Assembly: GCA_963805975.1 (NCBI GenBank)
Contig: CAWDVR010000001.1
Coordinates: forward strand, 1,216,001-1,280,000
Direction of reading: 5' to 3'
Length of the DNA: 64,000 nucleotides
Origin: an uncultured Acidobacteriota bacterium
Lineage (GTDB): Bacteria > Acidobacteriota > Thermoanaerobaculia > Multivoradales > SZUA-115
Shown: positions 4,738 through 56,597 of the stretch, in pieces
Numbering within the stretch: position 1 is the first letter of the stretch
Layout: every line of letters begins with the position of its first letter
Program-made: the position numbers and the translations under genes
The notes under the pieces: model-generated
Databases searched by the model: none
What the model was told of the DNA's origin: nothing
The model's input: only the letters and a program-made list of their open reading frames with translations

Positions 4738-6603
4738 ATGCGCTCTCCCCGGCCCTTAGAGCCCGCAGCCACGAGCTTGTCCACGACGGAGAGACCCGGT
4801 AGCGACCGTGCGCTGCTGGGCCGCGCGGCGCGTTTCTGGATCGTGGCCTTCGCCGCCTGCATGGTCGTGCTGCCTCTGGTGCTCAGCGTCTACGCCGGCT
4901 CGTTCACCCCCAACGGCACACAGCCGCCGCTCGCGCACGCCATCATCGAGCCCGGGATCTGCGAGAGCTGCCACGGAGACTTCAACGAGGGTGCCAACAT
5001 CGAGCCCTATCCCACCTGGGCGGGCTCGATGATGGCCAACTCCTCCCGCGACCCGCTGTTCTGGGCGGCGCTCGACGTCGCCAACCACGACATTCCCAAC
5101 GTCGGCGCCTTCTGCCTGCGCTGCCACGTGTCGTCCGGCTACCTGGCGGGCCGCACCGAGGCGCCAGGCGGCACGCCGGACGGCTGCGCGCTCGAAGGCA
5201 ACATCGACCAGCCGGACAACGACTTCGAGGGCGTCTCCTGCCACCTCTGCCACCGCATGATGGTCAACCCCAGCCCGCCGGTAGGCCAGCAGGGGGTCTA
5301 CACCGAGAACGCGCAGTACTGGCTCGACGACGCGGACTGCCCGAACGGCACCGGCTCGGGCCCCTGCCGTCGCGGCCCGTACAACTACCCCGGTGGGGGC
5401 CCCATCCCGCCGCCCCACGAGTGGGCGTTCTCGCAGTACCACGTCGACTCGACGATCTGCGGCAACTGTCACAACGTCACCAGCCCGGCCCAGACCCTGA
5501 TCAACGAGGCCGGCGTCGACACCGGGGTCCCGTACCCGATCGAACGCACCTACAAGGAGTGGCAGCAGAGCGCGTACGCGGTGGCGGGGGCAGGGTTCAA
5601 GACCTGCCAGAGCTGCCATATGCCGGATGCGACGCAGGTCCCGGCCTTCGCCTGCATCCTCGAGCAGAACAACCGCACCGGTGACATGGCCATCCACCAG
5701 TTCGTGGGCGGCAACACCTGGGTGCCGGCCGTGCTGAGGGAGGAGTACCCGAGCCTGGGGCGCACGGACGAGTACAACGCCACCATCGCCGCCGCCACCA
5801 GCATGCTGCAGGCGAGCGCGCTGGTGGAGGTGACGGCGCCGCCCGTTGCACAGCCCGAGGAAACGATCGAGGTCAGCGTCAAGGTGACCAACCTCGCCGG
5901 CCACAAGCTGCCCACCGGCTACACCGAGGGCCGCCGCATGTGGATCAACGTCGAGGCCCGGGACTCGACGAACCAGCTCGTCTGGCAGAGCGGCGCCTAC
6001 AACGCCGCGACCGGGGTGCTCACCGAGGACGCGCAGCTCAAGCGCTACCACAGCGAGCGCGGCATCTGGAACCACAACGGCACCAGCCAGTGCGACATCG
6101 CGGACACCGGCGGCAACCACTTCTTCCACTTCGTCTTGAACGACTGCATCCTCGGGGACAACCGCATCCCGCCCCTGGGCTTCACCGGCGGTGCCGACCT
6201 CGAAACCAAGCCGGTGGGCTACGCCTACCCGGAAACCACACCCGGGTCCGGCAAGCTGGTGAACTACGACACCACCACCTACCAGATCCCGCTGCCGCCG
6301 CTCACCATCCCACCGGTGACCGTGCAGGCGCGGCTCTACTACCAGATCGCGAGCAAGGACTACATCGAGTTCCTGCGCGACGAGGCGGTGACCTTCAACT
6401 TCCCGAACGACTGCATCCCGCGCACCGGCGGCACGCCGGTGCTGTCGCGCGGCGAGCTGCTCTACGACTTCTGGACCGACAACGGCCGCACGCCGCCGGT
6501 CGCGGTGGCAGTGGCGTCGGACTCGGTGGTGATCGACAACGACGTCTTTGCGAACGGCTTCGAGAGCGGCAACACCAGCGGCTGGACGCTGACCTTCCCC
6601 TAG
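4738..6603 (+). CDS. Exported multiheme (five CxxCH) c-type cytochrome
   Basis: CESCH, CLRCH, CHLCH, CGNCH, CQSCH; N-terminal hydrophobic segment; GHKLPTG motif. Confidence 0.85.
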   Translation: MRSPRPLEPAATSLSTTERPGSDRALLGRAARFWIVAFAACMVVLPLVLSVYAGSFTPNGTQPPLAHAIIEPGICESCHGDFNEGANIEPYPTWAGSMMANSSRDPLFWAALDVANHDIPNVGAFCLRCHVSSGYLAGRTEAPGGTPDGCALEGNIDQPDNDFEGVSCHLCHRMMVNPSPPVGQQGVYTENAQYWLDDADCPNGTGSGPCRRGPYNYPGGGPIPPPHEWAFSQYHVDSTICGNCHNVTSPAQTLINEAGVDTGVPYPIERTYKEWQQSAYAVAGAGFKTCQSCHMPDATQVPAFACILEQNNRTGDMAIHQFVGGNTWVPAVLREEYPSLGRTDEYNATIAAATSMLQASALVEVTAPPVAQPEETIEVSVKVTNLAGHKLPTGYTEGRRMWINVEARDSTNQLVWQSGAYNAATGVLTEDAQLKRYHSERGIWNHNGTSQCDIADTGGNHFFHFVLNDCILGDNRIPPLGFTGGADLETKPVGYAYPETTPGSGKLVNYDTTTYQIPLPPLTIPPVTVQARLYYQIASKDYIEFLRDEAVTFNFPNDCIPRTGGTPVLSRGELLYDFWTDNGRTPPVAVAVASDSVVIDNDVFANGFESGNTSGWTLTFP

Positions 6604-15707: not shown

Positions 15708-17855
15708 ATGGCCGGACAGCGATCGATCGTTCGTTTGCGGCGGGCCCTGCTCGGCCTCCTCGTGCTGCTCGTCGCCGGTCTCGCCGTCCTCTACTGGTTC
15801 GGGCGCTCCGGTCTCGAGCGCCCGCCCAAGGTGGCGATCGAGGAGGGCGAGCTGCCGGCCGACGATCTGACCTTCGCGGGCAAGGACTTCGACTTCAGCT
15901 ACGAGGAGGGCGGGCGGACGATCTTTGCTCTCCATGGGGACGACTTCCGGCGTGACCGCGAGGGCAACGTGGTGGTCGATCAGCTCGCGGTCCGGATCAA
16001 CACCGCCCAGGGAGATACCTTCGAGGTCGAGGGCAAGCAGGGCACCTACAACCAGGAGACGCAGGAAGCGGTCCTCGAATCCGGCGTCAAGGTCAAGAGC
16101 CCGTCCGGCATCGAGCTCGAGACCAGCAAGCTGCAGCTGACCCAGAAAGGCAGAGCCATCCTCGGCCAGGAGCCGATGACCTTCCGCTATCAGGAGAAGG
16201 CTCAGGGGCGCGCGGACCGGATGCGCGCCGACCTCGACGAGCGCCTGTTCATCCTCGCCGGCAACGTGCGGGTGGACAATGGCGCGGACGCCCCGGGGCC
16301 GTTCCGGATCCGTGCCGGCCGGCTCTATCTCGACCGCAACCAGCACCATGCGCGCGCCGATGGGGACGTGTTCGTCTCCTTCCTCTCGCACCGCCTGCGC
16401 GCGCCGCGCATCAACCTGTGGCTCACCGAGGACGACCAGACCGTGCAGTTCGTGCGCGCCGTACGGGGCGTGCGCGGACGGCTGGGGCTCCAGCCCTCGG
16501 CGAGCGCCGTCGGCCCGGTGCGCTTCGCAGGCCGGACTCTCTCGGCCATCTTCGCGCCGGACACCGGCGACCTCGCCCGCTTCGAGCTGGGCAGCAACGC
16601 GGCCGAGCCGGCGACGGTGATCTCGACCTCTCCCGGCGAGCCGGCGCGCAGGCTCGGGGCAAGCTTCATCAACGGCAACCTCGAAGGCGGCAACCTCACC
16701 CGGGCCGAGGCCCTGGGCGGGGTCAAGCTGGCGGAGCTCGCCACCTTGCCGCCCGAAGAAGCCTGGGACGCGGCGGCCGAGGCGGCGCCCGCCACCGAGC
16801 CGGCCGAGGAGAGCGGTGAAGACTCGGAGGAGAGCGAAGCGGAAGCAGCGAAGGCGGCGGCGCTGGGGAACGACTCGGTGGCGCTCGACGAGCTCGACCG
16901 CGGGGCACTGCGGCTCGCCACGGGACGCCGGGCCGAGGCGAGCTTCGGCCCCGACGGCCAGCTCGTCGAGGTCACGCTCTACGAGCGGGTGGACTTTCGC
17001 GACCCGCAGTTCCACGCCGTGGGCGACCAGGTGCGCTTCGACTACAGCAACGGCATCGGGGAGTTCCTCGGCAAGCCGGTGCGCGCCACCAGCGCGCGCG
17101 GCACTCTCACCGCGCCGCGCCTTCTCTATACTCAGCGCACCGGCCTATTGGTGGCGCAGGCCGGGGTCCGTGCCGAGCTCCAAGAAGAGACCGGGGCCGG
17201 CGTGCTCGGCGACAGCCCTCTGGCCGAGGGAGAAGGCCCTATCTTCGTGGAATCCCAAGAGGCTTTTTTTCGCGGCTCCTCCCGCTCGTTCCTCTTTCGC
17301 GGCAAGGTGAAGGCCTGGCGCGGCGAGAGCCTGGTCCTGGCCGACGAGCTCAAAGGAGACGAGGACACGGGCCAACTGACCGCTACCGGCAACGTGCGCA
17401 CGGTGACCAAGCAGCAGAGCGCACCGGCGCGTGGCGCCGCACCCCAACCGCCGGTGGAGGTCACCGCGGCGTCGATGCTCTACGGCAAGGCGGCACGCAC
17501 GATCGTCTACCGCACCGGAGTGAAGGCGGTGCAGGGCCAGCGGGCGCTCTCCTGCGACGAGCTGACCATCGAGCTCGACGACCGGCAGAAGCTCGAGGCC
17601 CTGGTGCTCACCGGCAACGCCAAGATCGAAGATCGCGAGACCGGCCGCACGGTGGTCGGCGACCGCGCCCGCTACGAGCCCGGGGCCAAGACCGTCACCG
17701 TGGAAGGCGAGCGGGCCACGATGCGCGACCGCGACGGCGCCGAGGTCACGGGCCAGCGGATCGTCTACGAGTTCGAGACCGGCAAGGCCCAGGTCACGGG
17801 CGCGCCGCCGGAACTTCCACCCGTCGGCTCCGCTGGAACCGGGAGCGGGCGATGA
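15708..17855 (+). CDS. Large LptC/LptA(OstA)-like LPS transport periplasmic protein
   Basis: N-terminal TM anchor, repeated beta-jellyroll-like segments (ATGNVR, LTGNAKI, GQRIVY), directly upstream of lptB. Confidence 0.75.
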
Positions 17856-25001: not shown

Positions 25002-25844
25002 ATGCGCCGCATCCAACCCAGAGTCATCGCCTGCTGCTGGAGCGCGGTCTTGTTGGCGCTCGCGCTCACCGCCTGCGCCTCGCGAACCAAGCCATCCTCG
25101 TCCCTCTCGCCGCCCACCTCCACCCCGGTGGCCGAGGCTCCGAGGGAACCTGTCACGCCTGCGGCGGAGCCGGCTCCCCAGTCGAAGCCAGCCCCGTCGC
25201 GGCCGGCAGAGCCGACCACCGTGGTGCTGGACAGCGGCGAAGAGACGGCCGAGCAACCCCGGAGCCTGCTCGAGGCATCGCGCCTGGCCAAAGAGAGACA
25301 GCGGACTGCTGGCCAGCCGGTCGCCGTGATCACCAACGAGAACCTCGGCGAGTACGCGAGCCGGGGAAGGCTGACTGTGATCCACCCGGCCCCCAAGCCG
25401 GCTTCCGAGGAACTTGCCGAGGAGGAGGGGACAGCCACCCCCTCGGGGGAGGCCGGTCGGGGGAAGAATGAGACGTACTGGCGAACGACCGCCCTGTCCC
25501 TGCGGGAGAAGTGGCGTGCAGCGCTCGACGCCGTGGTCGAGCTCGAGGCTCGAGCCGAGGCGCTCCGGCACCAGTTCTACAGCCAGGAGGACGTCTATCT
25601 CCGTGACACGCGCGTCAAGCCGGCCTGGGACCGTGTGCTCGACCGACTGGAAGAGGCCCGGCGCGAGTCGGAGTCGGGGCGCACCGAGCTGACAGACTTT
25701 CTCGACGAAGGCCGCCGCGCCGGCGCCCTCCCGGGCTGGCTGCGCGAGGGCATCGAGCTGGAGCCGGAAGAGCAGCGGACCTTCGAAGACGACCTGCCGG
25801 AGGCGGAAGCCGTGGAACCGGTTACGATCGACGACACACCATGA
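25002..25844 (+). CDS. Hypothetical lipoprotein
   Basis: Lipobox LALTA-C, Pro-rich linker, VITNENL motif, coiled coil. Confidence 0.7.
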   Translation: MRRIQPRVIACCWSAVLLALALTACASRTKPSSSLSPPTSTPVAEAPREPVTPAAEPAPQSKPAPSRPAEPTTVVLDSGEETAEQPRSLLEASRLAKERQRTAGQPVAVITNENLGEYASRGRLTVIHPAPKPASEELAEEEGTATPSGEAGRGKNETYWRTTALSLREKWRAALDAVVELEARAEALRHQFYSQEDVYLRDTRVKPAWDRVLDRLEEARRESESGRTELTDFLDEGRRAGALPGWLREGIELEPEEQRTFEDDLPEAEAVEPVTIDDTP

Positions 25845-27220
25845 CCCTCGACCCTCGAACCACTCCCCGGCGCTTCTTCATCGAGACCTGGGGTTGCCAG
25901 ATGAACGAGCTGGACTCGCAGCGCATGGCGGGGCAGCTCATCCAGCAGGGGATCCTGCCCACCCGAGACCCGGGCCAAGCCGATGTCATTCTGCTCAACT
26001 CCTGCAGCGTAAGGGAGAAAGCGGTGCAGAAGGTCTACTCGCGGCTCGGAGAGTACCGGCGCCTGAAGCTGGAGAACGACGAGCTGCTCATCGGCCTCTG
26101 CGGCTGCGTGGCCCAGCAGGAAGGGGAGAGCGCCCTCGCTCGCGTGCCGGACCTCGATTTCGTGATCGGTCCGGCGCGGGTGGGGGAGCTGAAGCAGGTT
26201 CTCGCCGAGCGCCGGGCGGGGCGACGGGTCGTTGCCACGGGTTTTCCAGAGGAGCGCAGTTTCGAGATCGATGCCATCTCCCGGGACGGCGACTACAAGG
26301 GGATGGTCACCATCATCGAGGGCTGCAACAAGAAATGCACCTTCTGCATCGTCCCTTTCACCCGCGGCCCGGAGCGCAGCCGCCGGATCGACGAGGTCCT
26401 TCACGATGTCCGCCACCTTCTCGACTACGGCTTTGTCGAGATCGAGCTCCTGGGCCAGACAGTCAACCACTGGCGCGATCCGGAACAGGATCTTGACTTC
26501 GCGGACCTGCTCGAAGCGGTGGCCGCGCTCGAGGGATTGAAGCGCCTGCGTTTCGTGACCTCCTACCCGCGAGACTTCTCGCCGCGGATGGTCGAGCAGA
26601 TCGGCCGCCGCCCGAACATCTGTCCCTACCTGCATCTGCCCGTTCAGTCCGGCTCCGACCGCGTGCTGCGGCGCATGGGTCGCGGCTACACGATTGGTGA
26701 GTACCTCGATCTGGCCCGACAGCTCCGTGCGGCGCGCCCCGGTCTCGCCCTGTCCACCGACCTGATCGTCGGCTTTCCCGGCGAAACGGCGGAGGACTTC
26801 GAGCAGACCCTCGCCTTGGTCGAACGGGTTCGCTTCTCGAGCTTGTTCGCCTTCTGTTACTCGCCCCGGCCTGGTACGGCCGCTCCAAAGCTCGACGGTG
26901 CCGTAGAGCCGGAAATCGCGCAGCGCCGGCTGCAGGAGCTCCTGGCCCTACAGATCCCGATCCAGCGCGAGCTCAACTCGAGCCTGGTGGGGGAGGAGAT
27001 GGAGGTGCTGGTGACCGGCGGAGGGAAGGAGCCGGGAGCCCAACAGGGTCGCACGGCGTGCCACCGGATCGTTCATTTCCAACCGCCCCGGCCGCTGCCG
27101 CTCGGCAGCCTGACGCGAGTGCGGATCGAGACCGCTCTGCCACACAGCCTGCGTGGAGCTTCTCTCGAGTCGATGCCGTTGTCCCACCACGGCGCTCCTG
27201 GTCTGCACGTTCTGGCGTGA
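25841..27220 (+). CDS. miaB: tRNA methylthiotransferase MiaB
   Basis: TWGCQMNELDS, NSCSVREKA, radical SAM CNKKCTFC, C-terminal TRAM domain. Confidence 0.95.
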   Translation: MTLDPRTTPRRFFIETWGCQMNELDSQRMAGQLIQQGILPTRDPGQADVILLNSCSVREKAVQKVYSRLGEYRRLKLENDELLIGLCGCVAQQEGESALARVPDLDFVIGPARVGELKQVLAERRAGRRVVATGFPEERSFEIDAISRDGDYKGMVTIIEGCNKKCTFCIVPFTRGPERSRRIDEVLHDVRHLLDYGFVEIELLGQTVNHWRDPEQDLDFADLLEAVAALEGLKRLRFVTSYPRDFSPRMVEQIGRRPNICPYLHLPVQSGSDRVLRRMGRGYTIGEYLDLARQLRAARPGLALSTDLIVGFPGETAEDFEQTLALVERVRFSSLFAFCYSPRPGTAAPKLDGAVEPEIAQRRLQELLALQIPIQRELNSSLVGEEMEVLVTGGGKEPGAQQGRTACHRIVHFQPPRPLPLGSLTRVRIETALPHSLRGASLESMPLSHHGAPGLHVLA

Positions 27221-27278
27221 TCCAGCCGGCGGCAGTCCACGTCTTGACGGCCTCCTGACGCAGGCTCACAATAGGCCA

Positions 27279-27773
27279 ATGGCCGACACCGAGCTCAAGA
27301 TGGAGATCCGCGGGTTGATGCTGGACCCCGCCTCCAACCTGCCGATCGTCATCCTGCGCGAGGAAAGCGGCCAACGCATGCTGCCGATCTGGATCGGCGT
27401 TTTCGAGGCCAACGCGATCGCGCTGCGGATCGATGGCTTCGAGCCCGCGCGGCCGATGACCCATGACCTCCTCCTGAACACCTTCCGCGAGCTGGGTGCC
27501 CAAATCGAGAAGATCGTGATCTCCGATCTCAAGGACACCACCTTCTTTGCCGTCATCCACATGAGCCAGGGAGAGCGGCAGAGCAGGATCGACTCACGTC
27601 CCAGCGACGCCATCGCCCTGGCTTTGCGGGCAGACGCCCCGATTTTCGTCCTGAGCTCCGTGCTCGACAAGGCCCAAGCCGCGGACCGCGCCTCGGAAGT
27701 CAGCGACGAGGAGCAGCTCAAGAAGTGGCTGGAGGAGATTAGTCCCGAAGATCTCGGAAAGTACACGATGTGA
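27279..27773 (+). CDS. Bifunctional nuclease family protein (DUF151)
   Basis: LPIWIGVFEANAI, RPMTHDLL, IDSRPSDAIALA. Confidence 0.92.
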   Translation: MADTELKMEIRGLMLDPASNLPIVILREESGQRMLPIWIGVFEANAIALRIDGFEPARPMTHDLLLNTFRELGAQIEKIVISDLKDTTFFAVIHMSQGERQSRIDSRPSDAIALALRADAPIFVLSSVLDKAQAADRASEVSDEEQLKKWLEEISPEDLGKYTM

Positions 27774-27832: not shown

Positions 27833-27850
27833 ATGTCGGCGCGCCGACAT
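27833..27850. promoter_or_regulatory. Perfect 18-bp palindrome ATGTCGGCGCGCCGACAT (candidate parS or operator)
   Basis: Self-complementary; just upstream of the predicted parA promoter TTGACC(27865)-18 bp-TACACT(27889). Confidence 0.5.
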
Positions 27851-27904
27851 CGAGGCTCGTGTCCTTGACCGTCTGTGAAGCGTTCCCATACACTCTCCGC
27901 GGTC

Positions 27905-28666
27905 ATGATCATTGCCATCACGAATCAGAAGGGCGGCGTCGGCAAGACCACGACCGCGATCAACCTCTCTGCAGCACTCGCCGGAAAAGGCCTCAGGACT
28001 CTCCTGCTGGACCTGGATCCACAGGCCAATAGCTCCATGTCCTATATCGACGTACGCAATCTTACCGGCCCCACGTTGTACGACGCGTTGACCGAACCAA
28101 GCGTCCACTTGGCCGACACCGTACGCCCTATCGAGCGGTTTCCTAACCTGTTCATCTCGCCCTCGACCATCTCTCTGGCCAAGATCGAGGCAAAGCTCCT
28201 CGGTGAGCTCGACAGCCACTACCGGCTCAAGGATGAGCTGGACAAGGTCCATGAACAGTTCGACTACGTGATCATCGACACTCCGCCAACGCTCGGCATC
28301 ATTACCTTCAACGCCCTGGTCGCCGCCACCCACGTTCTGGTTCCGGTGCAGTCCAGCTACTTCGCGCTGGAGGGAACGGACGACCTGCTCGACACGATCG
28401 ACAAGATCAAGCTGCGAGCCAACCCGCAGCTCCAGATCCTGGGCGCGCTCATCACTCTGTATGACAAGAGAACGGTGCTGTCCAAAGACATTCAGCGGCA
28501 GATTCACGAGGTGTTCGGCGACAAAGTCTTCAAGACCGTGATCTCGAAGAGCGTCCGTCTCGAGGAGAGCCCTGCTTACCACGAGCCGATCTTCACCTTC
28601 GCGCCCAACTCGAGCGGCGCCTACGAGTACTACAAGCTCACTGAGGAGGTGTTGAGCCGTGTCTAG
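27905..28666 (+). CDS. parA: ParA/Soj family ATPase
   Basis: NQKGGVGKTTT deviant Walker A, DLDPQAN, IIDTPP, SVRLEESP. Confidence 0.95.
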   Translation: MIIAITNQKGGVGKTTTAINLSAALAGKGLRTLLLDLDPQANSSMSYIDVRNLTGPTLYDALTEPSVHLADTVRPIERFPNLFISPSTISLAKIEAKLLGELDSHYRLKDELDKVHEQFDYVIIDTPPTLGIITFNALVAATHVLVPVQSSYFALEGTDDLLDTIDKIKLRANPQLQILGALITLYDKRTVLSKDIQRQIHEVFGDKVFKTVISKSVRLEESPAYHEPIFTFAPNSSGAYEYYKLTEEVLSRV

Positions 28667-29534
28667 CGCCACCGTCGTCACCAAACGCCGCGGGCTGCCG
28701 GATCGGGTGCGGATGCGTCACGAGCCGCATTTCGTCGAAGAGCTCACCAGCCGCCACGAGACGCCGGTGGGTCGGTTCATGCCGATGTCCGAGATCGAGC
28801 TCGATCCCCGGCAGCCACGCTCGGCGATGGGAGATCTCTCGGAGCTCGCGGCCTCGATCCGCACGAAGGGAATTCTCGAACCCATTCTGGTTCGCCCTCG
28901 ACCCGCCAGCGAGGAAGAGCCGGGAGCGCCCTACCGGATCATCTCCGGCGAGCGCCGCTTTCGAGCAGCCCAGGAGGTCGGCCTCTACGAGGTTCCGGTG
29001 ATCGAGATGGAGGTCAGCGAGGAAGAGGCCCTCGAGATTGCTCTCATCGAGAATCTCCAGCGTAAAGATCTGACGCCTTTCGAGGAAGCCGAAGGCTATC
29101 GGGCGCTTTCCGAGATCCATGGTTACACCCAGGAAGAAGTGGCAAGCTCGGTGGGGAAGTCGCGCACTGTGGTCACCGAGGCCCTGTCGCTGCTCCAGAT
29201 CCCACCTCGGGTGCGAAATGCAGTCCAGGCTTTGGGCGTTGGGTCGAAGTCGGTTCTGTTAGAGGTGCTGAAGGCCGGTGGCGAGGACGAGATGATCCAG
29301 CTCCTCGAACAGGTGGCACGTCAGGGACTCAACCGCGATGACCTCCGTCGAAAGCTACGCAACAAGGAGACGGCCAAGGGCGGGCGGCGCAAACCCTACG
29401 TGTTCAAGTTCAGGGCTCCAGACAAGACGTTCAGCCTGGCTTTGACCTTCCGCCAGAGCGCCGTGGACAAGGTCGATCTCATCGCTGCGCTCGAGCAGAT
29501 CCTGCGCGAGCTCCAAGCAGACAAAGACGGTTGA
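28659..29534 (+). CDS. parB: ParB/Spo0J family partition protein
   Basis: PRQPR, GILEPILVR, ISGERRFRAA CTP-binding motif, ALIENLQRKDL, HTH (TQEEVASSVGKSR). Confidence 0.93.
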   Translation: MSSATVVTKRRGLPDRVRMRHEPHFVEELTSRHETPVGRFMPMSEIELDPRQPRSAMGDLSELAASIRTKGILEPILVRPRPASEEEPGAPYRIISGERRFRAAQEVGLYEVPVIEMEVSEEEALEIALIENLQRKDLTPFEEAEGYRALSEIHGYTQEEVASSVGKSRTVVTEALSLLQIPPRVRNAVQALGVGSKSVLLEVLKAGGEDEMIQLLEQVARQGLNRDDLRRKLRNKETAKGGRRKPYVFKFRAPDKTFSLALTFRQSAVDKVDLIAALEQILRELQADKDG

Positions 29535-29627
29535 CTCCGGACCCCGAGAGGGGCTCCAGCAAGGGCGGCTAGTGCGGTCTTTTTGCCGGGGATCGCGGCT
29601 CGATCGCGCCGCCGCATCATCGATATG

Positions 29628-29655
29628 ATGTCCGATAAGATATATTATGTCAACT
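29628..29655 (+). other. dif site (XerC/XerD chromosome dimer resolution)
   Basis: ATGTCCGATAA-GATATA-TTATGTCAACT: 11-6-11 layout, ATAA/TTAT inner ends, XerD arm close to TTATGTTAAAT (E. coli) and TTATGTAAACT (B. subtilis); intergenic and AT-rich. Confidence 0.88.
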
Positions 29656-29775: not shown

Positions 29776-32187
29776 ATGACGCGGATCAGCCGGTACCTCC
29801 TGCGGGAGATCTGGGGCCCACTGGCCCTGGGGTTCTCCGTCTACACGTTCATCCTCCTAGTGCGGGTGCTCTTCCTCTCGGCGGAGATGATCATCCGCCG
29901 TGGCGTGCCGGCACCGGTAGTCGGCGAGCTGCTGCTCTGGAACCTGCCGAACATCGTGGTCCTGACGCTGCCGATGTCTCTCCTCTTCGGCATCCTGACG
30001 GCCGTGGGCCGGCTGGCGTCGGACAGTGAGCTGATCGCCATCCGGGCCAGCGGCTTGAGCCTGCTCAAGCTCTACCGGCCCATCCTCGTGCTGTCCATTC
30101 TCTTCACCCTGTTGAACGTGGGACTGATGTCCTACGTGCTGCCTTGGGGTAACGCCCGCCTGCAGCAGCTCCGCCTGGAGATGATGTCCCAGGGCGTGTC
30201 CCGCACGGTCGAGCCTCGAATCTTCTACGAGGACTGGCAGGACAAGGTGCTCTATGTGTTCGACATCGATCCGGCTACCGAACGCTGGCGCGGGGTCTTC
30301 CTCGCCCAGTCCTTACCCACTTCCAGCGAGCAGGAGGTGATCGTTGCCGACTGGGGCGAGGTCCGGGTCGACGCCGCCGGCGAGCGAGTCATGCTGATCC
30401 TGGGCAACGCCGAGGACCACAAGCTCGACCCCCTGCGCCCCGAGCGCTATCAACGCCAGCGATTCGCCGATGCCAGGCAGGAGCTGGACGACGCCTTCAC
30501 CAGCCGGGAGCGGGCCAAGATCTCGGCCTCCAAGGGAGTGCGCGAGCTCACCCTGCCGGAGCTGGCGGCGAAGGCGGAGGATCCGTCCACCTCCGCCGAG
30601 GTCCGCAACCTGGCCCGCGTCGAGATGCACAAGAAATTCTCCATCCCCTTCGCCGCCGTGGTCTTCGGCCTCTTTGCCTTGCCCCTGGGGTTCAACAATC
30701 GCCGGGGTGGCAAAGCCTCCGGCTTCGCGCTCTCGATCGGCGTGATCCTGGTCTACTACGTGTTGCTGAACAACGGCGAAGAGGCTGCGCGCTTCGGAAG
30801 GTTCTCTCCCTGGGTCGCCATGTGGCTCCCCAACCTGATGCTGGGAGGCATCGGGTTCTACCTGCTGATCCGCCGTGACCAGGACAGGAGCCTGCTCTTC
30901 TCACCGGTGGACCGCTGGCTGCGGCGAGACCTGTGGGGAGCGCTGACGGGCGCTCTCGGCAGGATTCGGCGGGCGCGCCGGGAGCGCCAGCGTGCCGCGG
31001 CCAGCCGCGCTGGGGGCGGCTCGGGCGGCGGCCTAGTGAAGGTTCTGATCTCCCGGCCACGCCTGACCTTTCCCAGCGTGATGGACCGCTACACCCTACG
31101 CGCCTTCGGTTCCGTGTTGCTGACCGTGCTGGTCTCGATCGTGGCCATTTACATCATCGCGGACCTGACGCAGTTGATCGACGAGATCCTGAAGAACCAC
31201 GTTTCGCAGGACGTCGTCGGCCAGTACTACCTCTACACGAGCTTCCAGGTCTTCTACGACCTGGCGCCGATCGTGGTCCTGGTGACCACGCTCATCACCT
31301 TCAGTCTGCTGTCGCGGACCAACGAGGTGACCGCGGCCAAGGCCCTGGGCATGAGCCTCTACCGCCTCTCACTGCCGGTGGTGGTCGCCGCGGTCCTGAT
31401 CTCGGCCTTCTCCACCTATCTCGAATCGGTCGTGCTGCCGGTCACCAACCAGCGGGCCCAGAAGCTCGAGGACAAGATCCGCGCCAATCCCGTGCCGCAG
31501 ACCTACAGCCGGCCGGACCGCTGGCTGTTCGGCAAGGGTGGCTTCATCTACAACTTCCTCACCTACGACCAGGCGACGGAGACCTTGCAGCGGCTGCAAG
31601 TCTTCGAGCTCGACGAGAACCACCGTTTGAAGAGCCGCCTGACCGCCGCAACGGCCCGCTTCGACCGTTCCCTGCACGGTGGGAAAGGCGGCTGGCTGTT
31701 CACCGACGGCTGGATCCGGCGGTTCGACTCCAGCGATACCGGGTCGAGTCTCCGGGACCCCGAGTACACGCGCTTTGCCGGGCCCGTGGAGGTCGATTGC
31801 AAGGAGACTCCGGAGTTCTTCGTCTCCGAGTTGCGGCGCCCCGAGCAGATGGGCTACGGCGAGCTCAAGCGCTACATCGCCGAGCTCGAGGCCAGCGGCC
31901 AGCCGGTACCGCAGCTCCAGGTGGACTTGCAGAAGAAGATCGCCTTCCCGGTCACCTCGCTGGTCATGGCGCTGGTGGCGCTCCCCTTCGCGTTTCGCCT
32001 CGGCCGGCAGGGAGCGCTCTACGGCATCGGCCTGTCGATCGTGCTCGGCATGGTGTTCTTCGGCGTGCTGGCGCTGTTCACCGCCCTCGGCGGCGCTGCC
32101 GTCCTGCCGCCGACGATCGCCGTCTGGGCACCGAGCGTGGTATTCGCGACGCTGGCGGTTTATCTCTTCCTGGGTGTTCGAAGCTGA
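29776..32187 (+). CDS. Fused LptF-LptG LPS export permease
   Basis: Two tandem YjgP/YjgQ-like halves (GRLASDSELIAIRASG; SRTNEVTAAKALG) in one 803-aa ORF. Confidence 0.9.
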   Translation: MTRISRYLLREIWGPLALGFSVYTFILLVRVLFLSAEMIIRRGVPAPVVGELLLWNLPNIVVLTLPMSLLFGILTAVGRLASDSELIAIRASGLSLLKLYRPILVLSILFTLLNVGLMSYVLPWGNARLQQLRLEMMSQGVSRTVEPRIFYEDWQDKVLYVFDIDPATERWRGVFLAQSLPTSSEQEVIVADWGEVRVDAAGERVMLILGNAEDHKLDPLRPERYQRQRFADARQELDDAFTSRERAKISASKGVRELTLPELAAKAEDPSTSAEVRNLARVEMHKKFSIPFAAVVFGLFALPLGFNNRRGGKASGFALSIGVILVYYVLLNNGEEAARFGRFSPWVAMWLPNLMLGGIGFYLLIRRDQDRSLLFSPVDRWLRRDLWGALTGALGRIRRARRERQRAAASRAGGGSGGGLVKVLISRPRLTFPSVMDRYTLRAFGSVLLTVLVSIVAIYIIADLTQLIDEILKNHVSQDVVGQYYLYTSFQVFYDLAPIVVLVTTLITFSLLSRTNEVTAAKALGMSLYRLSLPVVVAAVLISAFSTYLESVVLPVTNQRAQKLEDKIRANPVPQTYSRPDRWLFGKGGFIYNFLTYDQATETLQRLQVFELDENHRLKSRLTAATARFDRSLHGGKGGWLFTDGWIRRFDSSDTGSSLRDPEYTRFAGPVEVDCKETPEFFVSELRRPEQMGYGELKRYIAELEASGQPVPQLQVDLQKKIAFPVTSLVMALVALPFAFRLGRQGALYGIGLSIVLGMVFFGVLALFTALGGAAVLPPTIAVWAPSVVFATLAVYLFLGVRS

Positions 32188-33505: not shown

Positions 33506-34069
33506 TCAGCGCAAACCTGCTCCACCGTCAGGACGCCTGGCGAGGAGCACTTGCCGGGTCATCGCCGTCAGGCAACGCGAGGTCAGCTTGCCGATGCTGG
33601 CCGGGCGATAGCCGAGCAGGCGAGCGACCTCGGGAGGCTCGAGACCCAGGCAGTACCGCAGGTGCAAGAGCACCCGACAGCGAGCAGAGAGGCGGCCCAG
33701 CAGCTTGGTCACATCGCACCACAGCTCGGCCCTCTCCTGGGGCGGCGGCACCCCTGCAGCGAGCCACTCGAGAACGGAGACCTCGGCCGCGTCGTAGAGC
33801 CGGCGCCTCTGCTGGCGCCAGTACACCAGGCATCCTTTGCGCAGCGTTCCGATCAACCAGGCTTCGGGCTCACGGATGCTCGCCCAGTGGTAAACCAGCG
33901 CGAGCAGAGCCTGCTGCAGGACGTCCTCGGTGTCGTCGGCCGGGATGCGGTACTGGGAGAGCACCCGCCGGAGGTGAGGGCGGACCCGGGTGAGAAAGCT
34001 CTCGAATGCGGTCGAAGATTCGGGGGAAAGAAAAAGACTGCGCGAAAAGTTCTCTCGTTCGGTAACCAC
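33506..34069 (-). CDS. ECF-type sigma-70 family factor (paralog 3)
   Basis: Region 2 (DTEDVLQQAL, EAWLIG) and region 4 HTH (EVARLLGYRPASI); start uncertain (GTG 34069 or 34114). Confidence 0.75.
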   Translation of the reverse strand: MVTERENFSRSLFLSPESSTAFESFLTRVRPHLRRVLSQYRIPADDTEDVLQQALLALVYHWASIREPEAWLIGTLRKGCLVYWRQQRRRLYDAAEVSVLEWLAAGVPPPQERAELWCDVTKLLGRLSARCRVLLHLRYCLGLEPPEVARLLGYRPASIGKLTSRCLTAMTRQVLLARRPDGGAGLR

Positions 34070-34143
34070 CGAACCGAGGATAGCCGAAAGGCGAAACCCC
34101 GGCAAGGAGGCCACACGAGGCAGAGCGGAGCGGGCCCTCCCGA

Positions 34144-34686
34144 TCAGTCGAGGTCGGGAAGAAGCGTCGTCTGGCTGAAGCCTGCCTCGAGCAGCTCCCG
34201 GGTCAGCGAGGCGAGGCAGCGGCTGGTGACCTTGCGGATGCTGGACTGCCGATAGCCCATCCGCTCGGCGACCTCCGAGGAGCTACAGCCCAGCCCGTAG
34301 CGAAGGCGGAGCAAGGAGCGACAACGGGGCGGGAGCTTGCAGACCAGGCGATCGAGATCGTAGCGCAGCTCGGCCTTCTTCTGGCTGGGTGCCTCCGGCT
34401 CGGACAGCAGCTCGAGGATCGCGGTGTCCACTGCCTGGAAGAGGTGCTTCCGCTTCTTGCGCCAGTAGATCAGGCAGCGGTTGCGCAGCGTGACGATCAG
34501 CCACGCCTCCGGGTTGCGCACCACGTCCTGCTTGTGAATCAGGGTAAGAAAGGTTTCCTGGAGAACGTCGTCGGCATCCTGGGACGGGATGCGGTAACGG
34601 CCGAGAATCTGCACCAGCTTGGGCTGCACGTCTCGCAGGAGATCTTCGAAGACGACCGGCTCAGGAGCAGCGAAAGGAATGGTCAT
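34144..34686 (-). CDS. ECF-type sigma-70 family factor (paralog 2)
   Basis: DADDVLQETF, EAWLIV, EVAERMGYRQSSI; AGGAGG RBS before ATG 34686. Confidence 0.8.
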   Translation of the reverse strand: MTIPFAAPEPVVFEDLLRDVQPKLVQILGRYRIPSQDADDVLQETFLTLIHKQDVVRNPEAWLIVTLRNRCLIYWRKKRKHLFQAVDTAILELLSEPEAPSQKKAELRYDLDRLVCKLPPRCRSLLRLRYGLGCSSSEVAERMGYRQSSIRKVTSRCLASLTRELLEAGFSQTTLLPDLD

Positions 34687-34693
34687 AATCCTC

Positions 34694-35245
34694 CTAGAGC
34701 ACCGGGTCCGCAGGTTCTTCCGGCACTTCCGGCAGGAAGCCAACAGCGACCAACTGCCGGTTGAGCGCCGCCAGGCAACGGCTTGCCACCTTGCGAATGC
34801 TCGAGGCCCGGTAGCCCAGACGATCGGCGACCTCGGCCGGCTTGTATCCCAGCCCGTAACGGAGGCGAAGCAAATTCTGGCACCGCGCCGGCAGACACTC
34901 GAGCGCGCGCTCCAGATCGTGTGAAAGCTCCGACTGCGCCTGTTCCGGTGAGGCCGGTTCCGCCAGCAGCTCGAGGATCGCGGAGTCCACCGCGTCGGTC
35001 AGGCGTGAGCGCCGGCTGCGCCAATACATCAGGCAGCGCCGCTTGAGCGTGGCCAAGAGCCAAGCCTCGGCGCTGTGGATCTTCTCCCACTTGTACAAGA
35101 GGGTCAGAACGGAGTCCTGGATCAGATCCTCCGCATCCTGGGGCGGGATCTGGTAGTAACAGAGGATCCGTTCCAGCTTCGGCTGAACCTTGGGTACCAG
35201 GCGGTTCAGCGATTCCCAGGCAGAAGGGTCGTCAAGAGTCGCCAT
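34694..35245 (-). CDS. ECF-type sigma-70 family factor (paralog 1)
   Basis: DAEDLIQDS, EAWLLA, EVADRLGYRASSI; start at 35245 or 35257. Confidence 0.8.
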   Translation of the reverse strand: MATLDDPSAWESLNRLVPKVQPKLERILCYYQIPPQDAEDLIQDSVLTLLYKWEKIHSAEAWLLATLKRRCLMYWRSRRSRLTDAVDSAILELLAEPASPEQAQSELSHDLERALECLPARCQNLLRLRYGLGYKPAEVADRLGYRASSIRKVASRCLAALNRQLVAVGFLPEVPEEPADPVL

Positions 35246-35575
35246 GCGAATTCCCATACCCTCCGAACGTTGTCTCCCTGCCGGCTGATGGGAGATTCTA
35301 TCCCATCTCCAGCCCGAGACCTCGATCCTTTGCGCCGCTGCCGGCCATTCTCTCGGGAGATCCAGCTCATGCAACGGGGTCGCGCCGAATCATTCCCAGG
35401 TCTCTATATGCTAACACCACCGGCCGAACCTGTCTACAGTTTTTCTCAGTGCAGCACTGTTGTCGTTTCCCCGTCGGAGACTTGGCATACTCGGCGGACT
35501 AACCCAGACTTTCGCGAAAGTAGAGAAGGAGAGATGAGGCACTCTCTTTTGGGTACGGTCCCTACACGCCAGGCT

Positions 35576-55054: not shown

Positions 55055-55524
55055 TGGTGCTCTCGGCCGAGGTCCGCCAGCAGATCGCCGAGGCGCGGCG
55101 CCGCTACCCCACGGAGCGGGCAGCCCTGCTGCCGGCGCTGCACATCGCGCAGGACGCCTCCGGCGGCTGGTTGCCGGACGCGGTGATCGACGCGGTGGCC
55201 GCCGAGCTGCACCTCGATCCGGCGGACGTCTACGGCGTGGTCACCTTCTACGACCTCTACCACCAGAAGCCGGTCGGCCGGCACCGCATCCGGGTGTGCA
55301 CCAACGTACCCTGCATGCTGCGCGGCTCGGACGGCATCCTGGCCACGCTCAAGGCCGAGCTCGGGGTGGACGAGGACGAGGTGACGCCCGACGGCCGCTG
55401 CTCCTACGTCCACTTCGAATGCCTGGGCTCCTGCGACACGGCGCCGATGATGATGGTCGACCAGGACTACCACGAGAACCTGACGCACGAGCAAGTGCGC
55501 GAGATCGTCAAGGGGCTTGCCTAG
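55054..55524 (+). CDS. nuoE: NADH-quinone oxidoreductase subunit E
   Basis: VVTFY, CTNVPC, ECLGSC. Confidence 0.95.
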   Translation: MVLSAEVRQQIAEARRRYPTERAALLPALHIAQDASGGWLPDAVIDAVAAELHLDPADVYGVVTFYDLYHQKPVGRHRIRVCTNVPCMLRGSDGILATLKAELGVDEDEVTPDGRCSYVHFECLGSCDTAPMMMVDQDYHENLTHEQVREIVKGLA

Positions 55525-56597
55525 TGTACCGTCCTCGTAATCCGCGCAAGGATGCGGTTGTGGTTACGGACGATGCGGTGTGGGGACTTGGTCCAGACAA
55601 AGGGCGTGGGGTTGTCGTTCCAAGCTCGCAGGAAGTCCTTGATGTGGCGCATGAGAGCGGCCTTCGATGGGAAGCTCGTACGTCGCAGGCTGCGACGGGT
55701 CAGGATGCTGAAGAATCCCTCTACTTGGTTGAGCCAGGAAGCACTGGTGGGAGTGAAGTGAAAGGTGATCCGAGGGTTCTTCGTCAACCAGGCCTGGACC
55801 TCGGGTGTCTTGTGAGTGGAGGAGTTGTCCAGGACGACGTGCAATTCGCGCCGCGGAAACTCGCGCTGGAGCCGATCGAGGAAACTAAGGAAGTCCGCGC
55901 CGGTGTGAGAGTCCCGACAGTCTCCGACCACTCGGCCCGTCGCCAGTTCCAAAGCCGCGTAGAGGTCTGTGACTCCATGCCTCTTGTAGTCGTGGGTGCG
56001 CCGTTGCGGTTGCCCGGACCTCAAGGGCAGCAAAGGTTGGGTTCTCTCCAGCGCCTGAACTTGGGTCTTCTCGTCCAGACACAGCACGACAGCCTTCTCC
56101 GGCGGGTTCAGGTACAGACCCACCACGTCCTGGACCTTCTCAGCGAACCGCGGATCCTTGCTGACTTTGAAGGTCTGCTGCAGATGCGGCTTCAGGTCGT
56201 TCGCCCGAAGAATCTTATGCACGACCGTGTGCCCCAGCTTCACCCGAACCGCCAGCTGCCGAACCGACCAGTGCGAGTAGCCGGCCGGCGGCGGCTCCAT
56301 CACCGTCTTCACGATCTCGCGCACCTTCGCCTCCGAGACGTTGTTCCCGCGACCCGGCTTGGGCTGGTCCGCCAAGCCGGCCACGCCTCCACGTTCGAAG
56401 CGCTTGCGCAGGCGGCTGACCTGGGGAACCGAAAGGTGAAGACGCTTCGCGATCTCCACGCCCGAGACCCCCTCGTGGGCCAACAAAACCAGCCGAGCCC
56501 GACGCACATGGCCCGCCGGCGCTGTCGGCTGAGCCACCAAGGCTTCCAGAGCCGCCCGATCTCGGGCACTCACACGAAGAACCCTCGTCTTTCCCAT
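55521..56597 (-). CDS. IS630 family transposase
   Basis: LDEKTQVQAL, HDYKRHG, VLDNSSTHK, SWLNQVEGFF (DDE). Confidence 0.95.
   Translation of the reverse strand: MGKTRVLRVSARDRAALEALVAQPTAPAGHVRRARLVLLAHEGVSGVEIAKRLHLSVPQVSRLRKRFERGGVAGLADQPKPGRGNNVSEAKVREIVKTVMEPPPAGYSHWSVRQLAVRVKLGHTVVHKILRANDLKPHLQQTFKVSKDPRFAEKVQDVVGLYLNPPEKAVVLCLDEKTQVQALERTQPLLPLRSGQPQRRTHDYKRHGVTDLYAALELATGRVVGDCRDSHTGADFLSFLDRLQREFPRRELHVVLDNSSTHKTPEVQAWLTKNPRITFHFTPTSASWLNQVEGFFSILTRRSLRRTSFPSKAALMRHIKDFLRAWNDNPTPFVWTKSPHRIVRNHNRILARITRTVH

Follow-up and report, generated by a model that had tools for sequence, protein, structure and literature searches.

The window analysed here is a stretch of 64,000 nucleotides from the genome of an uncultured Acidobacteriota bacterium (G000:C1:1,216,001-1,280,000; 5.36 Mb in six contigs), and it carries a chromosome partition (ParABS) locus beside a dif-type recombination site. 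The module consists, in order, of a palindrome, a parA gene, a parB gene that overlaps parA by 8 nt, and a 28-bp dif-type site 93 bases past the parB stop codon (Table 1). A sequence-only reading of the window had listed the same elements, including a GERR motif and a helix-turn-helix (HTH) in ParB, and had proposed that they form a second, terminus-linked ParAB system. We find all of these elements in place and refer to the two genes as parA2 and parB2, and to the other partition genes of this genome as parA1 and parB1.

The locus sits at the chromosome terminus, neither near oriC nor on a plasmid, as the earlier reading had supposed. The strand polarity of the 40 most strand-biased octamers, trained on contigs C2-C5, switches at C1:1,247,378, which is 1.8 kb from dif (C1:1,245,628), and 52 kb separate dif from the cumulative GC-skew maximum on contig C1, at 1,193,640. 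In 11 of 12 genomes with both genes on one contig, parB2 and dnaA are separated by 41.6-49.5% of the chromosome (rounded genome sizes were used for three of the 12). Among side observations from this analysis, lesser GC-skew reversals near contig ends (C3 at ~852 kb and C5 at ~649 kb) may reflect an inversion or an assembly effect, and the most strand-biased octamers of C2-C5 (the GGGGGAG type, GACCTGTC and CGTTTCCC) are candidates for the FtsK-orienting polar sequences (KOPS) or Chi-like motifs of the lineage.

The genome has two ParB genes, and the other parAB pair, which is canonical, is located at C5:73-74 kb, about 20 kb from dnaA; the terminus pair is indeed a second system. Degenerate canonical parS-like sites (C5:75174, 75231 and 94040) are confined to the surroundings of parAB1 and dnaA. 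A canonical parS at the terminus locus was also considered and none was found there. The genome encodes two XerC/D-type genes, FtsK and SMC, and MatP was not found in it. Separately, we note a third Soj-like ParA, an orphan without a ParB gene (G000:C1:706,500-707,260, - strand), and a further ParA/MinD-family match at C2:697,904.

The palindrome upstream of parA2 is perfect over 18 bp (ATGTCGGCGCGCCGACAT). This status alone is weak evidence, because there are 159 perfect palindromes with arms of at least 9 in the genome. Its 16-bp core occurs once in the genome (order-0 expectation 0.009) and is conserved across relatives. Across the phylum, the exact site TGTCGGCnnGCCGACA is found in 53 of 72 ParB2-positive genomes versus 1 of 49 ParB2-negative genomes, and the reversed control in 2 of 121. 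In this bacterium's order as many as six copies of the site precede parA2, at distances of 50-740 bp; in other lineages it is just downstream of parB2, inside parB2, or tens of kb off on the same contig. One or two sites per genome are usual, and in a single-contig genome with five copies (G141) all of them fall within 875-1005 kb, a span of 130 kb around parB2. The in-gene site encodes the peptide C-R-x-A-D, whose codons are exactly palindromic in 26 of 27 loci, where ~2% would be expected from codon use in the same genes; the lone exception has an upstream site. By comparison, cysteines of other loci at the same column are encoded by TGT in 6 of 30 cases, and in the order with the upstream site the corresponding peptide is now V-Q-A-L-G or similar. 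Because synonymous codons keep the palindrome, selection acts on the DNA and not on the protein, and protein constraint can be discarded as the source of the in-gene palindrome. A fixed-position operator as the sole role is ruled out in turn because the position of the site moves. Linked to the genes, co-occurring with ParB2 and preserved through its codons, the palindrome behaves at the sequence level like a centromere, and it is likely the loading site of ParB2. As a side observation, in two ParA2-less loci of family f37 (L110 and L115) the palindrome overlaps the parB2 start codon.

ParB2 has the make-up of a ParB clamp with an altered DNA-reading surface. Its ParB_N and HTH_ParB domains score above cut-off, and its predicted fold (mean pLDDT, the predicted local distance difference test, of 89.7) matches ParB, Noc and KorB structures in whole-protein fold searches. 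The protein combines a CTPase N-domain (GERRxRA, with catalytic Q and E) and an HTH, which places it among ParBs; Q52, R54, the GERR motif at residues 97-100 (G97, E98, R99, R100), E131, N132 and R135 are invariant in 86 ParB2 sequences. These residues align with catalytic and clamp residues of the Myxococcus protein (bioRxiv 2021.05.05.442810; here and below, sources are cited for the passages bearing on the point at hand). In canonical ParB, R173 and G201 are described as fixed, with N178 and R204 common to Noc (C. crescentus numbering; PMC7383237). ParB2 retains only the arginine of this parS-reading set: the R173 equivalent is kept as R169, N178 is replaced by an invariant E174, and the GHAR segment is replaced by S-K-S-x-L-L, in a register that is uncertain. 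The sequence-only reading had described a short C-terminus. Instead, the protein is not short (291 aa versus 282 aa for the origin ParB) and its C-terminal part is divergent: ParB1 has a Pfam ParB_C match, whereas ParB2 has none and reaches an hhalign probability of 4.6% for it, although the model of the whole protein shows two strands and a long helix in this part. The ratio of nonsynonymous to synonymous substitution rates (dN/dS) against two relatives is 0.04-0.15, indicating strong purifying selection.

The partner ATPase is likewise intact. The deviant Walker A motif KGGVGKT, D36/D38, D125, R189 and R218 are invariant in 69 ParA2 sequences, so that catalytic and DNA-binding residues characteristic of ParA are retained. 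We take R189 and R218 to be the counterparts of arginines in the B. subtilis Soj numbering. Two arginines are named for DNA binding in Soj (PMC3778016), and both are kept in ParA2. Mean column identity is 68% for ParA2 versus 43% for ParB2. At its N-terminus ParB2 has a basic peptide with a GLP motif, with no evident amphipathic helix, and this peptide tracks ParA2: of 124 loci, 115 have both the peptide and an adjacent parA2, 8 have neither, and one is broken. The co-loss holds for 8 of 8 loci in three families; the same peptide loss was noted for S. pneumoniae ParB (PMC9449133). Five genomes without ParA2 have a single ParA match each, 38-45% identical to ParA2. Modelling the ParA2 dimer together with the ParB2 peptide gave a weak result, with a score of 0.44 against 0.00 for the best control, a partner pLDDT of at least 47 and a contact agreement of 56%. 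Of 157 solved pairs, 116 made the mark for such models, as did 2 of 215 mismatched pairs; among those that made it, 18 of the 157 solved pairs and both mismatches did so at 0.60 or below; likeness to solved ParA-ParB pairs may contribute to the score.

The dif-type site (ATGTCCGATAA-GATATA-TTATGTCAACT) is the only copy in the genome within 7 mismatches. With its 11-6-11 architecture, its single copy at the polarity switch and the XerC/D and FtsK genes encoded in the genome, it is a putative XerCD site. Counting dif as linked when it has at most 4 mismatches in 20 arm positions and lies at most 2 kb downstream of parB2, we find it at 34 of 38 loci of the order, at 33 of 69 other phylum loci (a set in which 27 had only ~1.5 kb of flank) and at 0 of 9 origin parB loci. 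The adjacency thus extends to relatives; its absence there, a place near oriC or on a plasmid, and a lone parAB were the conditions under which the sequence-only reading would have been refuted, and none of them holds. The median distance from the parB2 stop is 141 bp (69 linked loci), with dif in one orientation relative to parB2 in 44 cases and in the other in 25. In families f18 and f35 the canonical dif pattern was not found at this place, and each of the 5 genomes tested has a variant dif at a distance of 31-39 kb; parAB2 is thus tied to the terminus region and not strictly to dif. The variant (G042, G076, G090, G102 and G114) has TTATGGAAA as its XerD-side arm and lies ~15-17 kb from a Xer-type gene. 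A genome without ParB2 (G055) has the same dif motif ~49% of the chromosome from dnaA. Downstream of parB2 in locus L129 (G024), the XerD arm has been lost relative to the near relative G014, possibly an integration scar at dif.

The system is widespread in the phylum. Of 41 genomes of the order, 39 have a ParB2-grade match (E <=1e-73) and the other two are 79% and 89% complete; ParB2 is present in 72 of 121 phylum genomes (E <=1.3e-51; remaining ParB matches are 1e-40 or weaker). One row of the phylum counts is the unpublished genome G061 (locus L072), on which alone none of our claims depends; like all conservation counts here, these are descriptive because kin are not independent. In a genome of a family that otherwise has ParB2 (G144), dif comes directly after the nuclease gene, an arrangement that looks like a clean loss. 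Across 19 genomes the distances of ParB1 are correlated with those of ParB2 (Spearman 0.39, a value matched by 0 of 5000 permutations), in keeping with long vertical descent. Among the 30 clade representatives looked up, taxon labels were sparse, namely Acidoferrales, Aminicenantes, Acidobacteria and one Dormibacteraeota; this last (P0287, Candidatus Dormibacteraeota) belongs to a cluster that also has an Acidoferrales label, pointing to a mislabel, a binning error or a transfer.

To place ParB2 among partition proteins, we used a combination of profile searches and trees. The profile search returned a compact ParB2 clade, then a family with the same HTH type but different N-termini. In trees of 143 and 38 rows, the bootstrap of which is not fully settled, ParB2 forms one clade (96; 100/99) and canonical ParBs another (99; 100/100), with ParB2 placed among the sister family; this bears out the distinct subfamily that the sequence-only reading had suspected. 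Grouping ParB2 with the phylum's own ParB1 was rejected by the approximately unbiased (AU) test (p-AU 0.0002). Those sister-family members that are annotated belong to the Nitrosococcus plasmids pNHAL01 and pNWAT01. Their parB genes have GAGTCGGACGTCCGACTC at the codons that hold the in-gene site in parB2, with a repeat ~80-90 bp downstream, and these palindromes are likely an undescribed plasmid centromere; we found no study of the pNHAL01/pNWAT01 centromere in the literature. The 18-bp palindromes are at L186:4447-4464 and 4871-4888, and at L348:4447-4464 and 4862-4879. In L186, two tyrosine recombinases lie close to a further element, a dif-like motif 3.4 kb downstream. The in-gene palindrome is absent from two other plasmid ParBs (L350 and L187) and from two related metagenome genes (L194 and L195). 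A metagenome scan yielded mainly ParB2 and canonical ParB, and a wider viral scan gave 80 loci, none combining the ParB2-type HTH and the site. A recent plasmid or phage origin was also tried and rejected, 72,556 plasmids giving 2 weak matches (E 6e-22) and viral contigs none. Based on the comparison, we propose that the terminus parAB2 likely descends from a plasmid-type partition family.

Our favoured reading, to which we give a probability of roughly 0.58, is that parAB2 is a domesticated plasmid-type second ParABS at the terminus that positions ter and separates sister termini at division. It is based on the terminus location, the separate origin parAB, the phylum-wide conservation, the co-occurrence of site and ParB2, and the intact catalytic residues. 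In the general form, which we hold at slightly better than even odds, Acidobacteriota chromosomes would have two centromeres, a canonical ori ParABS and an orthogonal, plasmid-derived ter ParABS that centres ter for FtsK/XerCD and then separates the sister termini. Plasmid ParABS systems space their cargo. By analogy, a single unreplicated terminus would be centred where FtsK and XerCD act, and two replicated, resolved ter copies would be driven apart, the septum being cleared after FtsK/XerCD action. From ParABS biochemistry we would expect ParB2-CTP clamps to load at TGTCGGCnnGCCGACA and spread across the dif region, and the ParB2 N-terminal peptide to stimulate nucleoid-bound ParA2-ATP. The changed DNA-reading surface would insulate the ter system from the origin ParABS.

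A number of observations weigh against this proposal. ParB2 was not detected with this query in 49 of 121 phylum genomes, and 9 of 14 fetched ParB2-negative dif regions keep miaB/nuclease or lptFG beside dif; ParB2 is dispensable in many lineages, since ParB2-negative genomes often retain dif in the same gene block. The housekeeping block is itself terminus-linked, so gene-order inertia could explain part of the location. Three families have kept ParB2 without ParA2, in two of them still adjoining dif, which points to a ParA-independent role. The exact site is missing in 19 of 72 ParB2-positive genomes; in our window it is single and lies 15 bp upstream of the -35 box, a placement fit for an operator. 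Three genomes depart from the usual arrangement: in G140 (L125) ParB2 is 62 kb from dnaA, without parA2 and with neither site nor dif nearby; in G044 (L120) parAB2 is 62 kb from the other parAB, with no site or dif in the fetched region; and in G062 parAB2 is present with site and dif absent from the fetched region. As for the ancestry, ParA2 is nearer to the origin ParA1 (43% identity) than to the Nitrosococcus plasmid ParA (38%), and the nearest tree neighbours of ParB2 are metagenome proteins of no known replicon.

The alternative that survives best casts ParB2 as an organiser of the terminus or a factor that licenses division, after the manner of MatP, ZapT or Noc; spreading from the site, it would compact ter, exclude or unload SMC or link ter to the divisome, with ParA2 as a spatial regulator of division and not a segregation motor. 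The families with ParB2 and no ParA2 fit such a role, as does a genome in which MatP was not detected but which has SMC, FtsK and two XerC/D-type genes, and the C-terminal domain without a ParB_C match could bind other partners. Moreover, anchors between ter and the divisome are known in E. coli and Caulobacter (PMC8242196). However, ParA2 adjoins ParB2 in nearly all loci, is the better conserved of the two and keeps its DNA-binding arginines, the usual one or two sites fall short of the many that would be spread over a macrodomain or the chromosome, and the N-terminus is a basic peptide tracking ParA2 and not an evident amphipathic helix. We consider this explanation unlikely, though it deserves to be kept in view.

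Alternatively, a plasmid-derived parABS was integrated at dif long ago and has been kept for a reason unrelated to the terminus, such as autoregulation, another replicon or regulation, its place being conserved gene order. The plasmid-type ancestry, the placement directly at dif, the patchy loss and the off-terminus G140 would suit this explanation, and so would the position of the site, which adjoins the promoter in this order and covers the parB2 start codon in two loci lacking ParA. Against it stand the strong purifying selection and the correlated ParB1/ParB2 distances; nor is there a close ParB2 relative on the 72,556 plasmids (the 2 matches are weak) or on viral contigs. In addition, sites inside or downstream of parB2, or 5-77 kb off and yet staying in the ter region, cannot be operators. 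We judge this account improbable. Finally, a direct partnership of ParB2 with XerCD/FtsK at dif, in which it might present dif for synapsis or gate recombination, draws on proximity (the 141-bp median) and is very improbable given that dif varies in orientation and in spacing (0 to 39 kb) and that lineages without ParB2 keep the same dif.

A comparison with characterized systems helps to define what the favoured terminus ParABS resembles. The role described for chromosomal ParABS is segregation of the origin region (PMC7333895). Relative to the origin systems (Soj/Spo0J-parS; T. thermophilus 1vz0, M. xanthus 7bnk and C. crescentus 6t1f), parAB2 has in common the parA-parB operon, the ParB CTPase and HTH fold, a Soj-type ParA, a 16-bp palindrome with TGT...ACA ends, the basic N-terminal peptide and the R173 equivalent. 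Unlike them, it lies at ter and not ori, coexists with a canonical copy, has no ParB_C match and has CGGC in place of TTCA as the inner half-site, in addition to the HTH replacements described above. ParB2 thus differs from canonical Spo0J in its distance from the origin, its parS-reading residues and its clade. The type Ia ParABS of the Nitrosococcus plasmids, known from annotation, agrees with it in HTH type (E at the N178 position, SKS-x-L), in its side of the tree and in a palindrome core, GTCGG-N4-CCGAC, in the same parB codons, but it is plasmid-borne, with other N- and C-termini and a more distant ParA, whereas ParB2 is chromosomal and tracks its host phylum. Noc, the nucleoid occlusion protein of Bacillota, is also a second ParB-family CTPase with its own 16-bp site (NBS). 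Noc is not known to pair with a ParA; it binds the membrane as well as many sites, and ter is depleted of it. ParB2, by contrast, has R169 and not the QKKR specificity code, has ParA2 as a partner and few sites, and scores 146.9 bits with the Noc model against a cut-off of 315. MatP/matS of E. coli and ZapT of Caulobacter (PMC7858052) are likewise site-specific proteins of the terminus region tied to division, but they are unrelated proteins without a CTPase or ATPase partner. By genomic criteria, then, the system works like a type Ia ParABS and not like a canonical origin ParB/parS, Noc or MatP. Terminus systems reviewed in PMC8242196 are MatP, ZapT, XerCD/dif and SMC unloading; our literature search, with most subscription papers and supplements outside its reach, found no description of a terminus ParABS of this kind.

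If the favoured reading is true, the system would represent a new way of segregating termini, driven by a motor and with a centromere that often lies within parB itself. With a complete ParABS at ter, a large phylum would demonstrate that one chromosome can carry two insulated centromeres, and how ter reaches and clears the septum without MatP becomes a directly testable question. Other gains would be a naturally occurring example of co-evolution between HTH and site outside ParB/Noc, a domestication that can be followed from plasmid to chromosome and, for labelling loci, an additional ParB/parS pair that is new and orthogonal.

Table 1. Features of the terminus parAB2 locus and its immediate neighbours (window coordinates).
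Feature	Position	Strand	Remarks
miaB and bifunctional-nuclease genes	25841..27773	+	Conserved upstream neighbours; context, outside the module
Candidate parS2 palindrome	27833..27850 (16-bp core 27834-27849, TGTCGGCGCGCCGACA)	.	Unique, conserved, ParB2-linked, position variable
Sigma-70-like promoter of parAB2	27865..27894	+	TTGACC, 18 bp, TACACT; predicted from motif
parA2, Soj-type deviant Walker A ATPase, 253 aa	27905..28666, start ATG	+	AAA_31 match, E 8.6e-55
parB2, ParB CTPase clamp with altered HTH and divergent C-terminal domain, 291 aa	28659..29534, start GTG	+	
ParB2 N-terminal peptide codons (KRRGLP...MRHEPHFVEEL)	28683..28745	+	Predicted ParA2-contacting motif
dif-type XerC/XerD site (11-6-11)	29628..29655	+	Single copy, arms conserved, centre variable
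lptF-lptG fusion	29776..32187	+	Often downstream of dif; context

A counterpart of the predicted promoter precedes parA2 in 29 of 30 loci of the order. The flanking genes (miaB, the bifunctional nuclease, the lptF-lptG fusion, and phosphotransferase system (PTS)/rpoN genes) are housekeeping, as had been stated from the sequence, and no Rep or integrase was found among 40 further open reading frames (ORFs) of the window, hand-picked from 73 ORFs of at least 280 aa. The sole mobile gene among the scanned ORFs is an IS630-type transposase 26 kb off (55521-56597, - strand), right before nuo genes. A mobile element integrated at dif, be it a plasmid, an integrative and conjugative element (ICE) or an integrative mobile element exploiting Xer (IMEX), was also considered and dismissed: no Rep, relaxase or integrase was found among the scanned ORFs, nor a second dif-like boundary, and the housekeeping neighbours are conserved. 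Just past the dif region, three related extracytoplasmic function (ECF) sigma-factor genes stand in tandem (33506-35374, - strand). Lastly, LptF and LptG form a single 803-aa ORF, and LptC and LptA-like domains are similarly joined in a single 715-aa ORF (15708-17855).

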